Below, piece by piece: positions 2,387 through 20,184 of a stretch of DNA of 64,000 bases. Position 1 is the first letter of the stretch, and each line of letters starts with the position of its first letter. Origin of the DNA: an uncultured Endomicrobiia bacterium (GTDB taxonomy: Bacteria; Elusimicrobiota; Endomicrobiia; Endomicrobiales; Endomicrobiaceae). The position numbers and the translations under genes are program-made. The notes beneath the pieces were generated by a model, which saw only the letters and a program-made list of their open reading frames with translations, was not told the DNA's origin and searched no databases. Location of the stretch: assembly GCA_938040055.1 (NCBI GenBank), contig CALHWY010000007.1, positions 10,132 to 74,131 on the forward strand, in the 5' to 3' direction.

Positions 2387-4144
2387 TTACCAGTCGGCTT
2401 TTTTTCCAAAAGGGGTAAGGGGAAGATGCGAGCCGAAAACTATATTTTTAGGCATTTCATGGGCGGTCAGAACGGATTTCATATAATCGTGTATGCTTTT
2501 TTTTGCCGTTTTTTCATCGGCGTCTTCCCTGAGAACTATAAAAGCTTTCAGCCTGTCGCCTCCCGAACGGACTACGACGTCTTTAATATCCGTATGTTTT
2601 TTTAAAAGCTTTTCTATTTTTAAAGGATAGACGTTTATTCCGGCGATTTTTACCGCATGGTCTTTTCTTTCTATTACCGAGAAAATCCTTTCGCCTTTTG
2701 TTCTTACGATATCGGGCAGTTCGGATTTAAGAGAGGTTGCTTTTCTGGAAATTTCTGTCATTTCGCCGCCTCTTTCCTCATAGTTCCAGAAAGGAAACAG
2801 AAAAAAAGGGGATCCTGCGCTTTCCCTGAACCCTATGGCGCCGGTTTCGGAAGAGCCGTATATTTCTATCACTTTTTCAGCCCCTCTTTTGTATATTTCC
2901 TCAAAAACATTATCGGGACACGGCGAAGTGGACGTCAAAACGGTTATTCCTTCAGGAAACATAAAACCGATATCAATCATATATTTAAGAAAAAGAGGGA
3001 AAGTCACAAGAAGATCTCCCGGCTTCAATATTTCATCCCATTCGGGAAAAGGCACCGGCGGTTTTGAAAGCACTCTGATATTCATAAGTTTTGAAAGCTG
3101 AAGCCCGAAAATAAAACCGTATGAATGATGGGAAGGCACCGTTGACACTATCCTTGATATTGTGCTGAAGAGAAAACTCACCCCTTCGGTTTCTTCTTTT
3201 ATCATTTCCTGGGAATGTATGCAGTTTTTGGGAATGCCGCTGCTGCCGGAAGTAAAAAAGTTTATCCTTTTGCTTTTTCCGAACGCCCGCGCGCAAACGC
3301 TTTCAATGTCCGGACTTTCCGAATCATAAGTTTCCTTTATGCCGCACAAAAGTTTCAATCCTTTGAAAATATTCTCTTTTTCGTCTTTTGCGGCTTCTTT
3401 AAGCATATCTTTCGCTTCAAAATTTTCAAAAACCGAAAATACGTCCTTTCTTGTGCCCGCGAGATAAGTTTTAATAAAATCCCTTACCACTCTGGCGGCG
3501 TCTTTTTTGTTCAGGAAAGGATAATGTTTTTTTGCGGTTTCAAAGGCTTGCGCGCAAGGATTATAATTGTCGGCCGGGCGCGGCTCAAAGACAAATTCGT
3601 TTTCGGTTTCTTCAAAAGTCAGAAGAAAAAAAGCGGCATGCGCCCCGCCGTATATTTTATGGCCGTACTCTTTATTTATGACGGGATGTATGTCGTCTGC
3701 CGCCCCTAAAAGAACATATCTGCATCTTTGCGACAAAAGCCAGCTTTTTGCCGTGTCGACCGCCGAAGCAAAAGCCCCTCCGCTTTGGCATACGGTAAGA
3801 CAAGGCCCTCTGAAATTTAAAATAACGGAAACCGCCGTTTCAACGCAATTGTGCACCGAGAAAGAAAAAGCCAGAGGGGAGGCAAGCTCATCTCCGCCGT
3901 ATATTATGGAATCCATAAATCCGCAGGTCTGTCCCGCGGGACCTCTGCCTGTGGCTATAATCAGCCCTATGTCTTCTTTTTCTTTTTCAAGGCTTATCCC
4001 CGCTTCGTTTAAAGTTTTAGCCGCGGCAAATAAAGCCGTTTTTATAAAATTATCCATGCGGCGCAGCCGGCTTGGCTCGCAAAATTCGTCTATGCCGTCC
4101 GCTTTATCCGCAAAAGCGCATCCTTTGAGGTAAAGTTTATTCAT
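2387..4144 (-). CDS. fusion protein: N-terminal half-ketosynthase (KS N-terminal-like, CLF/ApeC-like) plus C-terminal acyl/aryl-AMP ligase (PaaK/F390-synthetase-like, ApeH-like)
   Basis: 585-aa ORF. Residues ~1-200 resemble only the N-terminal half of a KS (IIATGRGPAGQT, LTVCQSGGAFASAVD, LLGAADD) and have no His-His half. The C-terminal part carries the adenylation P-loop FFTSGSSGIPK and YGSSETG. The ATG overlaps the upstream KS stop by 8 nt. Confidence 0.75.
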   Translation of the reverse strand: MNKLYLKGCAFADKADGIDEFCEPSRLRRMDNFIKTALFAAAKTLNEAGISLEKEKEDIGLIIATGRGPAGQTCGFMDSIIYGGDELASPLAFSFSVHNCVETAVSVILNFRGPCLTVCQSGGAFASAVDTAKSWLLSQRCRYVLLGAADDIHPVINKEYGHKIYGGAHAAFFLLTFEETENEFVFEPRPADNYNPCAQAFETAKKHYPFLNKKDAARVVRDFIKTYLAGTRKDVFSVFENFEAKDMLKEAAKDEKENIFKGLKLLCGIKETYDSESPDIESVCARAFGKSKRINFFTSGSSGIPKNCIHSQEMIKEETEGVSFLFSTISRIVSTVPSHHSYGFIFGLQLSKLMNIRVLSKPPVPFPEWDEILKPGDLLVTFPLFLKYMIDIGFMFPEGITVLTSTSPCPDNVFEEIYKRGAEKVIEIYGSSETGAIGFRESAGSPFFLFPFWNYEERGGEMTEISRKATSLKSELPDIVRTKGERIFSVIERKDHAVKIAGINVYPLKIEKLLKKHTDIKDVVVRSGGDRLKAFIVLREDADEKTAKKSIHDYMKSVLTAHEMPKNIVFGSHLPLTPFGKKADW

Positions 4145-5324
4145 AATCTTTGCCTCCGATAATCAGGCATGCATTGCATCCTCCGAAAGCGAGAGAATCC
4201 GACAGAGCGGCCTTTTTTTTGTCTATATCCGTATGCGCGGTTACCGGCGTTAAACCGAGGTTTTCATCAGGCGCGGTAAAATTATTGGTTTTTGGAATGC
4301 GCCCTCCGTTAAGGCAGATAAGAGAAATGCAGGCTTCAACGGCTCCCGCGGCGCCTAAAGCATGTCCGGTAGAGCTTTTTGTGGCGCTGACGGGAATCCC
4401 TCCGAAAAGTTCGTTAAAAACTTTGGCTTCCGCGGCGTCATTGTCCGGGGTTGCGGTAGCATGCGCGTTTATAAAAGCTATTTTTTCTTTATCTATAGCC
4501 GCCTGCCTGACGGCAAAGTCCGCGGCTTTTCTCAAGCCGCGCCCGCCGGGCTCCGGAGCAGTCGGGTGATAGCCGTCGCATGCATTGCCGTAACCTAAAA
4601 CTGCGCCGTATTTTGAGCCTTCTCTTTTTTTGAAAGAATTGCGCGACTCCAAAATAAAAATGCCGGACCCTTCTCCGAGATTTATGCCGTTTCTGTTTTT
4701 GTCGAAAGGCCGGCAATGCTGCCTGCTTGCTATCATAAGTTTTATAAAGCCGGTAAAAGGTATAAGATTCAGTTCATCCGTTCCGCCCGCTATGACAATA
4801 TCGCAAAACCCGTTTTCTATCCATTCGGCGCCTATTCCTATCGCGTCCGTGCCCGAAGCGCATGCGCTGACAACCGTCTGTGACAAGCCTTTAACGCCTA
4901 AAAAACCGAGAACTTCATCGGAAACCGCATAATTTATATATCTGTCAAGAGGCGCTAAAGAAATTTCAGCCCCTTCGCGCCATTCTTTGTAGAAATCAAA
5001 ACAGTTAAAAGACGCGTCCACGGAAGTGCCTATGCACACGCCGACTTTTAAATTGCGGAAATCCTCCTTTGCAAGAGCGGCTTTTTCCATGGCTTCCGAC
5101 AAAGCTTTGCGCAAAAATAAAAAACTGTAGCTTTCATTTTCTTCCTTTTGCGATAAAACCTTTTCAGGCGCCTGAAAAACGGGAAATTGCAAAGCATAAG
5201 AACTTTTAAACCGGTCTTTTATATAAGACGGTTTTATGGAATCGGAAAATAAATTCTTCGATATTTCTTCTGCGCCGCTTCCGAGAGAGCAGACGCAGCC
5301 GAAACCCGAAATAAGCGTTTTCAT
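4137..5324 (-). CDS. beta-ketoacyl-ACP synthase (FabF/FabB-like KS)
   Basis: 395 aa. Motifs: VVSACASGTDAIGIG (active-site Cys), INAHATATPDND and KSSTGHALGAAG (catalytic His pair), FGGCNACLII near the C-terminus. The start ATG overlaps the ACP stop (TAATG). Confidence 0.9.
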   Translation of the reverse strand: MKTLISGFGCVCSLGSGAEEISKNLFSDSIKPSYIKDRFKSSYALQFPVFQAPEKVLSQKEENESYSFLFLRKALSEAMEKAALAKEDFRNLKVGVCIGTSVDASFNCFDFYKEWREGAEISLAPLDRYINYAVSDEVLGFLGVKGLSQTVVSACASGTDAIGIGAEWIENGFCDIVIAGGTDELNLIPFTGFIKLMIASRQHCRPFDKNRNGINLGEGSGIFILESRNSFKKREGSKYGAVLGYGNACDGYHPTAPEPGGRGLRKAADFAVRQAAIDKEKIAFINAHATATPDNDAAEAKVFNELFGGIPVSATKSSTGHALGAAGAVEACISLICLNGGRIPKTNNFTAPDENLGLTPVTAHTDIDKKKAALSDSLAFGGCNACLIIGGKDYE

Positions 5325-18918: not shown

Positions 18919-19446
18919 CTTCAGCTCCGCATTCGTATATTAAAAACATTTACGGCGCCGGGAAAACGCGCGCCGCAGGAAACGGGCTTTTTATTTTCCG
19001 GCCCCGCCCGCAAAACGGCTTTTAAAACACAGCCCGCCGTTTTTTCGGATTGCAGTTTACGAACTCCGGACTTTACATAAAAGCATACGGCGTACTTTGC
19101 CGGTTACAATACAAAAAAGCGCTCCCGAAACGGTTTGCGCCGCCGCGAGTTAATCTTTGCGGCCGGCAAAGCCGGAACAAACAAAATCTAAAATACGGCT
19201 TCTAAAACCACTGAGGGCCAACTTAATATATCCGTTTGAATTTTCCGGATCCGTAACCTGAACTTGCTTTTCAAGCCGATTTCCAGCTAACCATTCATAT
19301 CCGCCGGAACTTCCGGTTAATAAACCGCAACGGTTTTTTCAAAATCCCCGAGGGTTAATTCAGCCCGGCCCCGCAGAACGTTTTTGCGCAGAGAAAATAC
19401 GGTTTTTTGCATATAAGATGCGGAATGTTTTCCCGCAAAAAACTTT

Positions 19447-20184
19447 TTAAGCGCCTATGCCGCCGTTTATCTGAAAAATCTGTCCTGTTATATATCCCGC
19501 TTTATCCGAAGCGAGATAAGAAACCATCTCGGCTATATCGCGCGCCGTTCCGAGCTTTCCCAGAGGAATTGTTTTAAGTATTTGCTCCATCGGAAGCCCT
19601 TCAAGCATCTCCGTGTCTATAAAACCCGGAGAAACGGCGTTTACCAGAACATTTCTCTTGGCGACTTCGGCTGCCAAAGCTTTTGTCGCTCCGGCCAGCC
19701 CGGCTTTAGCCGCAGAATAATTGCTCTGCCCGGGAACGCCGAAATGGGCGGCCGCGGAAGTAATGTTTATAATCCTTCCCGCCCTGTTTCTGAGCATAAA
19801 AGGAAGCACGGTTTTCGTTATATTGAAAAAACCGTCAAGAGTTACCGAAATAACGTCTTTCCACTCTTGTCTCTTCATCCATATAAGAAGAGCGTCTCTT
19901 CTGAAACCGGCATTATTGATTACGGCGAAAGGGGTTTTATTTTCAAGCAGAGGGGACAAATTTTTTTCTGTTTCCTCATAGTCCGCTACGTCGAATTTTA
20001 AAAGAAGGCATTCTCTGCCCGATTCTTCTATTTCCCTTTTAACCTCCGCCGCGCGGACATCATCCGAACGGTAATTAAGCCATATGTCAAAACCGTCCCT
20101 TGCCAGGGTTCTGGCCGTTTCCGCGCCTATCCCCCTGCTGGCTCCGGTAACCAAAGCTATTTTATTTGTTATATTTACGCTCAT
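19447..20184 (-). CDS. 3-oxoacyl-ACP reductase (FabG-type SDR, ApeQ-like)
   Basis: 245 aa. Motifs: VTGASRGIG, NNAG, SNYSAAKAG (YxxxK), PGFIDTEM. Confidence 0.9.
   Translation of the reverse strand: MSVNITNKIALVTGASRGIGAETARTLARDGFDIWLNYRSDDVRAAEVKREIEESGRECLLLKFDVADYEETEKNLSPLLENKTPFAVINNAGFRRDALLIWMKRQEWKDVISVTLDGFFNITKTVLPFMLRNRAGRIINITSAAAHFGVPGQSNYSAAKAGLAGATKALAAEVAKRNVLVNAVSPGFIDTEMLEGLPMEQILKTIPLGKLGTARDIAEMVSYLASDKAGYITGQIFQINGGIGA

Follow-up and report, generated by a model that had tools for sequence, protein, structure and literature searches.

A probable aryl-polyene lipid gene cluster with a fused chain-length factor and ligase in an Elusimicrobiota bacterium of the human mouth

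Aryl-polyene systems and a related locus

Aryl polyenes have been linked to protection against oxidative stress and to biofilm formation. One pigment of this family, the xanthomonadin of Xanthomonas, resides in the outer membrane and is primed by an aryl-acid:acyl carrier protein (ACP) ligase, and xanthomonadin clusters encode the chorismatase XanB2 together with a halogenase. Here, we describe 16 genes at positions 2387 to 20184 of a 64,000-nucleotide stretch of contig CALHWY010000007.1 (the whole of this stretch is called the window below). Our analysis indicates that these genes are likely to form a cluster for the biosynthesis and export of an aryl-polyene lipid, of the aryl polyene (APE) or aryl polyene lipid (APEL) type, in a diderm, Endomicrobia-related member of the Elusimicrobiota that lives in the human mouth.

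The closest described systems are the ape clusters (apeA to apeR) of Escherichia coli CFT073 and Xenorhabdus doucetiae, which make APELs. Their core set comprises the ketosynthase (KS) genes apeO and apeR, the ACP genes apeE and apeF, the chain-length factor (CLF) gene apeC, the dehydratase genes apeI and apeP, the ketoreductase (KR) gene apeQ, and the transporter gene apeM (bioRxiv 10.1101/2020.12.19.423268), and roles for the Ape proteins have been published (bioRxiv 10.1101/2020.12.19.423268, PMC8358021, PMC8253772). The E. coli cluster encodes no starter-forming enzyme; instead, the ligase ApeH loads 4-hydroxybenzoate, which is supplied by a chorismate lyase encoded elsewhere (PMC8253772). 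A second relative is the flexirubin (flx) cluster of Chitinophaga pinensis and Flavobacterium johnsoniae (PMC3992019), which we compared with the window by annotation and NCBIfam models. By annotation, it resembles the window cluster in its LpxL-type FlxE, its family 2 glycosyltransferase (GT2) FlxT, its LolA-like FlxQ, and its RetSat-labelled FlxV, and it likewise has a thioesterase, dehydratase-like proteins, several KS and ACP proteins, and the methyltransferase FlxJ.

Gene content of the cluster

The list of open reading frames (ORFs), a six-frame reading, and Pfam and NCBIfam scans yielded 16 intact, co-directional genes on the minus strand, which are given below in the order of transcription. 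Identities were obtained by BLASTP of the window proteins against the E. coli CFT073 ape cluster proteins, which served as the reference.

19447 to 20184 (minus): KR, ApeQ/FlxB-type 3-ketoacyl-ACP reductase, 245 aa; adh_short_C2, 189 bits; FlxB, 288.7 bits (cut-off, 340); 42% identical to ApeQ
17500 to 18918 (minus): flavin adenine dinucleotide (FAD) oxidoreductase of the CrtI/CrtD/RetSat family, 472 aa; Pfam Amino_oxidase and NAD_binding_8; CrtD, 81 bits, far under the cut-off
16275 to 17510 (minus): ApeR-type KS, 411 aa; 35% identical to E. coli ApeR (E value, 6e-79); Cys-His-His triad; best Protein Data Bank (PDB) match 7f27, 245 bits
16024 to 16278 (minus): ApeF-type ACP with a DSL motif, 84 aa; Pfam PP-binding; 35% identical to ApeF (E value, 3e-15)
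15312 to 16031 (minus): PlsC/LPLAT-type acyltransferase, counterpart of ApeD, 239 aa; Pfam Acyltransferase, 66 bits; 30% identical to E. coli ApeD (E value, 1e-9)
13968 to 14360 (minus): secreted protein, counterpart of ApeA, 130 aa; N-terminal signal sequence; 33% identical to E. coli ApeA over 122 aa (E value, 3.5e-16); no Pfam or NCBIfam match
13295 to 13753 (minus): hot-dog dehydratase, ApeP-like, 152 aa; Pfam ApeP-like, 19.9 bits (cut-off, 27); FabZ models, E value of 1e-7
11927 to 12523 (minus): LolA-like periplasmic carrier, counterpart of ApeL, 198 aa; Pfam LolA, 49 bits; LolA2_flexi, 95.4 bits (cut-off, 125); 20% identical to ApeL, a weak BLAST match
9247 to 11943 (minus): MMPL/RND exporter, counterpart of ApeM, 898 aa; Pfam MMPL; BLAST matches to ApeM at 21 to 36% identity
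8909 to 9250 (minus): ApeI-type dehydratase with an HFPG motif, 113 aa; Pfam ApeI-like, 30.5 bits (above the cut-off of 28.5); 30% identical to ApeI
8161 to 8625 (minus): 4HBT thioesterase, counterpart of ApeK, 154 aa from the ATG at 8625 (relatives, 153 aa); 4HBT_2, 47 bits; 28% identical to ApeK (E value, 7e-16)
6957 to 8204 (minus): GT2 glycosyltransferase with a DUF2062 membrane domain, counterpart of the N-terminal half of ApeJ; Pfam Glycos_transf_2 and DUF2062; 34% identical to ApeJ residues 1 to 230
6092 to 6979 (minus): LpxL-type acyltransferase, counterpart of the C-terminal half of ApeJ; Lip_A_acyltrans, 28 bits; 21% identical to ApeJ residues 247 to 550 (E value, 1e-11)
5324 to 5581 (minus): ApeE-type ACP with a DSL motif, 85 aa; Pfam PP-binding; NCBIfam NF006617; 33% identical to ApeE
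4137 to 5324 (minus): ApeO-type KS, 395 aa; 30.5% identical to ApeO; Cys-His-His triad; overlaps the next gene by 8 nt
2387 to 4144 (minus): CLF-ligase fusion, 585 aa; CLF of the ApeC type at about aa 1 to 230 and an aryl-acid adenylating ligase related to ApeH and PYP-type 4-coumarate ligases at about aa 250 to 585

All 16 ORFs are full-length relative to their homologues, and the identical sequence occurs on several independent contigs. Sequence reading and alignments indicated that catalytic motifs are kept in both KS proteins, the KR, the ACPs, the ApeI-type dehydratase, and the ligase. A first-pass annotation of this DNA, made from the letters alone, had listed 15 co-directional genes; every gene type that it named was found in the Pfam and NCBIfam scans, and the count rises to 16 with the CrtI-like gene.

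Assignment to the aryl-polyene family

For 15 of the 16 proteins, E. coli CFT073 encodes an Ape counterpart, namely, ApeA, ApeC and ApeH (fused), ApeD, ApeE, ApeF, ApeI, ApeJ (split in two), ApeK, ApeL, ApeM, ApeO, ApeP, ApeQ, and ApeR. For the two KS proteins, the top NCBIfam models are the same as those of E. coli ApeO (NF006618) and ApeR (NF006587), with scores under the cut-offs. A KS phylogeny, a check put forward with the first-pass annotation, gave a concordant picture: in a neighbor-joining tree, the KS encoded at 4137 to 5324 grouped with ApeO (94% bootstrap) and that encoded at 16275 to 17510 grouped with ApeR (68% bootstrap). The two ACPs, both with a PP-binding domain and a DSL motif, can be told apart by BLAST, with a preference for ApeE in one case and ApeF in the other. 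Matches of the MMPL and LolA-like proteins to ApeM and ApeL are weak but specific. No FabI-, FabK-, or FabV-like enoyl reductase was detected by Pfam and NCBIfam among the 16 proteins.

The second dehydratase, encoded at 13295 to 13753, is harder to place. It gave no BLASTP match to ApeP and has no FabZ catalytic His motif; it is a hot-dog protein at a conserved position, and its positional homologue in Solidesulfovibrio (locus L028) passes the ApeP-like model with 29.9 bits. Given the E. coli counterparts and the tests of the KS and CLF proteins, the genes that define an ape cluster are all present, with this dehydratase as the only weak assignment among them. The first-pass description of the locus as a type II polyketide synthase-fatty acid synthase lipid cluster of the aryl-polyene/flexirubin family thus holds, on the evidence of the 15 counterparts, the KS tree, and the CLF fold described below.

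Two genes had been singled out in that description as extra. The PlsC-type acyltransferase is the counterpart of ApeD and so belongs to the ordinary set. The CrtI-like flavoprotein does lack an E. coli Ape counterpart, and yet it is no anomaly: its gene lies directly after the KR gene in 43 of the related loci that we fetched (82 in all, L004 to L085), and its RetSat label is that of FlxV from the published Chitinophaga flexirubin cluster.

Compared with the E. coli and Xenorhabdus clusters, the window shares the half-size CLF without a catalytic cysteine, two ACPs, the ApeO/ApeR pair of KS proteins, priming by a free-acid ligase, no starter-forming enzyme within the cluster, no enoyl reductase, and an ApeB-family methyltransferase in the genome. 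It differs in that ApeC and ApeH are fused, ApeJ is split, there is an additional CrtI/RetSat-like flavoprotein, neither ApeG nor ApeN is encoded, the methyltransferase gene is unlinked, and the order is rearranged into ApeR-F-D and ApeJ-E-O-C/H blocks. With respect to xanthomonadin, neither a XanB2 chorismatase nor a halogenase was found in the window.

The fused ligase and the starter unit

Both halves of the fusion protein are recognized by Pfam, as Ketoacyl-synt_2 (PF13723; 35 bits against a cut-off of 25) and AMP-binding, and hhalign related the protein to ApeH with 99.3% probability and to ApeC with 62% probability. The CLF domain, like E. coli ApeC, has no catalytic cysteine; in the alignment, the column of the KS cysteine holds Gly, Val, Ala, Glu, or Arg. 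An AlphaFold model of this domain (pLDDT of 91; for the full-length fusion, pLDDT of 87 and pTM of 0.80) found its best Foldseek match in 7f28_A (TM score of 0.74), the 203-residue partner chain in the Acinetobacter baumannii ApeO-ApeC crystal, and also matched Xenorhabdus ApeC (6qsp_B).

The ligase half is only 24% identical to E. coli ApeH by BLASTP, and it keeps the P-loop (TSGSSGIPK), the A5 motif (YGSSETG), the A8 hinge, and the A10 lysine. The top Foldseek matches of the whole-fusion model are enzymes that activate aryl acids: MenE, benzoate-CoA ligase, and 4-chlorobenzoate-CoA ligase. With TIGR02372, the model for PYP-type 4-coumarate ligases, the fusion scored 192 bits against a cut-off of 334.7, which places it closer to these enzymes than E. 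coli ApeH, whose score is 75 bits. Because ApeH, a 4-hydroxybenzoate enzyme, has the same best model, this match is silent on the substrate. Among stand-alone proteins, those most closely related to the ligase half carry the label of PYP-type 4-coumarate ligases; one of them is fused to a tyrosine ammonia-lyase (TAL).

A single ORF for CLF and ligase is confined to loci of the Elusimicrobiota type, those of both Elusimicrobiota isolates included; Solidesulfovibrio, Desulfovibrio, and two other loci have two neighboring genes instead. This clade-specific fusion suggests that priming and elongation are physically coupled.

Domain scans of nearly all window ORFs of at least 110 aa revealed no ammonia-lyase, chorismate lyase, or halogenase. 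The first-pass annotation was therefore right that a starter-forming enzyme and a halogenase are missing, but there is nothing abnormal in the absence, since the E. coli ape cluster has no starter-forming enzyme either (PMC8253772); clusters primed by a ligase ordinarily lack one. A hydroxyaryl acid is the probable starter, and where it comes from is a question about the organism, not a sign that the cluster is anomalous.

One speculative source had been proposed within the window, an arylacetate supplied by the iorAB and paaK genes at 42.5 to 49.5 kb. The link finds no support: in none of the relatives is a homologue of iorA, iorB, or ACT close to the cluster. The genes form the usual iorAB-paaK-ACT arrangement, and the PaaK protein, listed here, shares only 27 to 29% identity with the FlxY-type ligases found in the TAL-type loci described below.

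42525 to 43826: PaaK-type ligase, the only one in the window, in an iorAB-ACT context

It is conceivable, albeit unlikely, that the cluster of this strictly anaerobic oral bacterium makes a structurally new aryl-polyene lipid, with the CLF-ligase primed by an aromatic acid that the cell takes from its host, the diet, or neighboring bacteria, and with tailoring by the RetSat-like enzyme. A scavenged starter comes into question because the organism may have neither a chorismate lyase nor an ammonia-lyase. Were this so, the pigment, and any protection from oxidants that it provides, would hinge on the metabolites of the surrounding community.

Also unlikely is that the same machinery builds a polyene or another conjugated-acyl outer-membrane lipid on a starter other than a hydroxyaryl acid (another aromatic, heteroaromatic, or aliphatic acid acquired from the environment), in which case the product would not be a strict aryl polyene. 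The distance of the ligase from ApeH, its shortfall with TIGR02372, the best match that it shares with ApeH (from which no substrate can be read), and the absence of a starter-forming enzyme from the window all leave room for such a starter. They are met by the labelling of the nearest stand-alone relatives of the ligase half as PYP-type 4-coumarate ligases, one of them TAL-fused, by aryl-acid ligases as its top structural matches, and by the retention in the genome of an ApeB/FlxJ homologue, a probable ring methyltransferase (see below).

Host and related loci

The exact protein sequences were found on contigs of the human oral metagenome ERZ989741, to which contigs k127_81788 and k127_81589 belong. 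Close homologues of the fusion protein, the MMPL protein, and the flavoprotein come essentially all from genomes or metagenome-assembled genomes (MAGs) of Elusimicrobiota/Endomicrobia, mostly from termite or animal guts; the best named match of the fusion protein is 73% identical, and a scan with one genome per species gave no match at the species level, the best one (61% identity at the MMPL protein) being from a termite-gut Endomicrobia MAG. These homologues place the host in the Elusimicrobiota and not in a Bacteroidetes-like lineage; the first reading had drawn its comparisons from Proteobacteria and Bacteroidetes. Elusimicrobiota are mentioned in the human mouth by an oral-MAG catalogue, and our literature searches retrieved no specific report of aryl-polyene clusters in this phylum.

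The related loci share a conserved order: KR, flavoprotein, KS, ACP, PlsC, ApeA-like, ApeP-like, LolA, MMPL, ApeI-like, thioesterase, GT2, LpxL, ACP, KS, CLF, and ligase. This order recurs in Endomicrobia MAGs, in the cultured Parelusimicrobium proximum and Elusimicrobium posterum, and in a termite-gut Spirochaetota MAG, and it recurs with additions in Solidesulfovibrio aerotolerans, Desulfovibrio, and many Desulfuromonadales. The window thus has in common with these uncharacterized, syntenic clusters of Desulfobacterota, Lentisphaerae, and Elusimicrobiota the backbone from KR through CLF, while the Desulfobacterota versions add a third KS gene after the KR gene, one or two B12-radical-SAM genes after the thioesterase gene, and a 223-aa gene after the MMPL gene.

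On this backbone, two priming modules exclude each other. In 15 loci, as in the window, a ligase related to ApeH and PYP-type 4-coumarate ligases adjoins the CLF, and in 27 loci, a full-length aromatic ammonia-lyase is found instead; the overlap is zero. The TAL-type loci fall among L027 to L085 and are of the Desulfuromonadales/Lentisphaerae type. One example is L044 (5808 to 8711), in which a tyrosine/histidine ammonia-lyase follows a PaaK/F390-synthetase-type ligase, as seen by Pfam in that locus only; for at least 21 more of these loci, tblastn places a PaaK-type match immediately upstream of the lyase. This module matches the FlxA/FlxY arrangement of flexirubin clusters.

These modules bear on whether the window cluster could itself be of the flexirubin type, in which the 4-coumaroyl starter comes from TAL and an F390-synthetase-type ligase and the polyene acid forms an ester with a dialkylresorcinol. 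We consider this improbable. The best NCBIfam names of the window KR, LolA-like protein, and methyltransferase are indeed Flx models (FlxB and LolA2 for the first two), and the RetSat-labelled FlxV, an LpxL-type acyltransferase, a GT2 protein, and the FlxJ methyltransferase of the published flx cluster all have likenesses here. However, each of these equivalog models is missed (FlxB, 288.7 against 340 bits; LolA2, 95.4 against 125; FlxJ, 393 against 560). The window cluster has neither a FlxA-type TAL nor an F390-synthetase-type FlxY, and the window has no halogenase. The TAL query that matches the 27 loci does not match the window, and no PF00221 protein occurs among the scanned ORFs. General scans of the ORFs of the 64-kb window, made without a DarA or DarB reference, gave no match of the KAS III/DarB-like kind. 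Finally, the window belongs to the CLF-adjacent ligase type, with which the TAL-PaaK module does not co-occur in the related loci.

A MAG labelled Pedobacter sp. (L048) was considered as a Bacteroidota/flexirubin reference and rejected: its contig has 59% GC and is a gene-for-gene mirror of a contig from a "Pelobacter" MAG (L065), and the Pedobacter label is probably a binning error.

An unlinked methyltransferase

The first-pass annotation had stated that the cluster lacks a methyltransferase. One is encoded in the same window, about 30 kb from the cluster.

50150 to 51379 (minus): ApeB/FlxJ-family S-adenosylmethionine methyltransferase, 409 aa

Along its full length, the protein shares 48% identity with E. 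coli ApeB, more than in any other comparison with an Ape protein, and it scores 393 bits with the NCBIfam model FlxJ_fam_MTase (E. coli ApeB, 470; cut-off, 560). In two cultured relatives (L012 and L013), Parelusimicrobium proximum (57% identity) and Elusimicrobium posterum (48%), the orthologue directly follows the cluster, with about 300 bp between it and the CLF-ligase gene. Since nrdD follows the cluster instead in the oral lineage and in L004, the gene has been split off from the cluster. It is the probable ring methyltransferase of the pathway.

Directly upstream, at 51760 to 55423, are genes for two large proteins, one of 763 aa with no Pfam match and one of 453 aa with a weak alpha/beta-hydrolase match. 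Neither has a homologue in any related locus.

Taken together, the missing starter enzyme, the missing methyltransferase, and the two extra genes had made the cluster seem unusual, and all four points are countered by the comparisons above. The cluster is a fairly ordinary member of a widespread aryl-polyene pigment-lipid family. Its distinctive points are modest: the CLF-ligase fusion, the absence of ApeG and ApeN, and about 2.8 kb of noncoding spacers within the cluster.

Spacers and repeats

Four spacers account for about 2.8 kb of noncoding DNA beyond that of the compact cluster of L004 (17.8 kb in the window compared with 14.8 kb).

5582 to 6091: noncoding spacer holding 2.2 tandem copies of a 106-nt, hairpin-bearing repeat (5600 to 5835)
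12524 to 13294: noncoding spacer, not in L004
14361 to 15311: noncoding, hairpin-rich spacer, not in L004
18919 to 19446: noncoding spacer between the KR and flavoprotein genes; 76 bp in L004

The 106-nt repeat unit carries a GGAAGCTTCGCTTCC hairpin, and besides the tandem copies at 5600 to 5835, there are two diverged copies at 8702 to 8914. An ORF called mechanically at 8642 to 8905 (87 aa) is spurious and not a gene because it is a copy of this intergenic repeat. No other part of the spacers recurs, so that they do not form a repeat family. They were also rejected as pseudogenes: tblastn with 3160 ORFs from the 82 loci returned only inconsistent noise (E values of >1e-4), six-frame reading found no ORF, and L004 has no genes at these places. 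A search of the whole window gave no Rfam match at the gathering threshold to a known RNA, and scans for promoters and terminators in the cluster found only modestly more than in shuffled sequences, with no clear operon structure.

Weighing the assignment

Several observations weigh against an aryl-polyene lipid cluster. Identities to the E. coli Ape proteins are low, at 20 to 42% by BLASTP, and every match to an NCBIfam model specific to aryl polyenes or flexirubin falls under its curated cut-off. The ApeP-like assignment misses its Pfam cut-off, as noted above (19.9 against 27 bits). ApeG (COG4648) and ApeN (DUF3261), which are thought to be part of the export machinery, have no tblastn match in the window or in the 82 related loci. 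As a strictly fermentative member of the Elusimicrobiota, the host may lack a chorismate lyase. The four spacers break the cluster and might disturb co-transcription. Moreover, the methyltransferase carries an in-frame insertion of 61 aa with an internal duplication (TKFPG..FPGSAVAAGEEN, twice) that is missing from the Parelusimicrobium, Elusimicrobium, and E. coli orthologues, and because of this insertion, its activity is uncertain.

ApeG and ApeN are outside the published core set (bioRxiv 10.1101/2020.12.19.423268), and a substitute for ApeN may exist. The MMPL proteins of Elusimicrobiota exceed those of E. coli and Desulfobacterota by about 110 to 130 aa; in the window, the C-terminal extension measures about 135 aa (9247 to 9650) and opens with a lipobox-like LLPFAGC motif. 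This extension may be a fused ApeN/LolB-like lipoprotein that stands in for ApeN. In an hhalign comparison with ApeN, the lipobox regions align in what is a weak match (E value of 0.0076, probability of 5%).

The spacers, the duplicated insertion, and the parting of the methyltransferase gene from the cluster might also be taken as signs of a decaying or silent remnant under relaxed selection in a host-associated lineage. This, too, is very unlikely in our judgment, on account of the 16 intact and full-length ORFs, the conserved catalytic motifs of the KS pair, KR, ACPs, ApeI-type dehydratase, and ligase, and the recovery of identical sequence from several independent contigs.

That the genes are merely the housekeeping type II fatty acid synthase of the organism, an alternative named with the first-pass annotation, can be dismissed as extremely improbable: the KR does pass one FabG model (NF004200; 276 bits against a cut-off of 273), and the best PDB sequence matches of the ApeO-type KS are FabF enzymes, but the KS proteins (270 and 294 bits; FabF cut-off, 493.75), the ACPs (35 and 53 bits; cut-off, 70.45), and the dehydratases (23 to 32 bits; FabZ cut-offs, 113 to 155) miss their models widely, FabD, FabH, and an enoyl reductase are absent from the cluster, the KS proteins branch with ApeO and ApeR, and the gene order, with its CLF, aryl-type ligase, MMPL, LolA, GT2, and LpxL genes, is that of ape clusters and unlike the E. 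coli fab locus.

A proposed pathway

The steps of an aryl-polyene lipid pathway can be proposed by homology to the reconstituted Xenorhabdus/E. coli system. The starter acid would be made elsewhere in the genome or imported. In priming, the ligase domain would adenylate a free aromatic acid (4-hydroxybenzoate, 4-coumarate, or the like) and load it onto the ApeE-type ACP. The ApeO-type KS, together with the fused, catalytically dead, half-size CLF, would then add malonyl units with the help of the ApeR-type KS, and the KR and the pair of ApeI- and ApeP-type dehydratases would process each round. Because there is no enoyl reductase, a conjugated polyene would result.

A second conjugated acyl chain might be built by the ApeR-type KS and the ApeF-type ACP and placed on a lysophospholipid by the PlsC/ApeD acyltransferase. 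For the head group, the GT2-DUF2062 protein may add a sugar to which the LpxL-type acyltransferase would esterify the aryl polyene. The thioesterase would edit or release intermediates, the unlinked ApeB/FlxJ methyltransferase would methylate the ring, and the CrtI/RetSat-like flavoprotein would modify the polyene. The MMPL, LolA-like, and ApeA-like proteins are the candidates to carry the lipid to the outer membrane. Genes whose products are proposed to cooperate adjoin one another, as seen in one block of ApeR, ApeF, and ApeD genes and another of the ApeJ halves and the ApeE, ApeO, and ApeC/H genes.

Other features of the window

Just upstream of the cluster, at 21056 to 21694, lies a gene for a secreted, DUF4097/LiaG-like "toastrack" protein, homologues of which flank the cluster in L005, L007, L008, and L009; it may be an accessory component. 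Directly upstream of the cluster, Endomicrobia relatives carry [BioB]-SDR-KS-DUF5672-BioF-like genes (L004, 148 to 3942; L005, 2130 to 6970), which may constitute a biotin/pimelate module with its own KS. The corresponding region of the window is 22280 to 25495, where a 344-aa ORF with no Pfam match (23516 to 24550) replaces the KS and DUF5672 genes of the relatives.

A low-GC cassette (31 to 34%) at 44836 to 47905 lies between iorA (47746 to 49521) and iorB (44348 to 44821). Its genes specify two methyltransferases, one an N6/N4 DNA methyltransferase and the other Dam-like, along with a 378-aa unknown protein. The cassette has the look of a restriction-modification system that was gained by horizontal transfer and interrupts the iorAB operon. 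The window also encodes two ankyrin-repeat proteins, at 30514 to 31794 (426 aa) and 32960 to 34009 (349 aa). Such repeats are rare among free-living bacteria and typical of host-associated ones.

Implications for the organism and the family

For those who classify such clusters, the loci compared here offer two alternative priming modules on an otherwise syntenic backbone, along with a CLF-ligase fusion that is specific to one clade. Neither the exchange of priming modules nor the fusion alters the current understanding of the pathway. To our knowledge, almost nothing is known of the physiology of Elusimicrobiota in humans, and a complete cluster in an oral member of this phylum adds one likely envelope trait for an uncultured organism.

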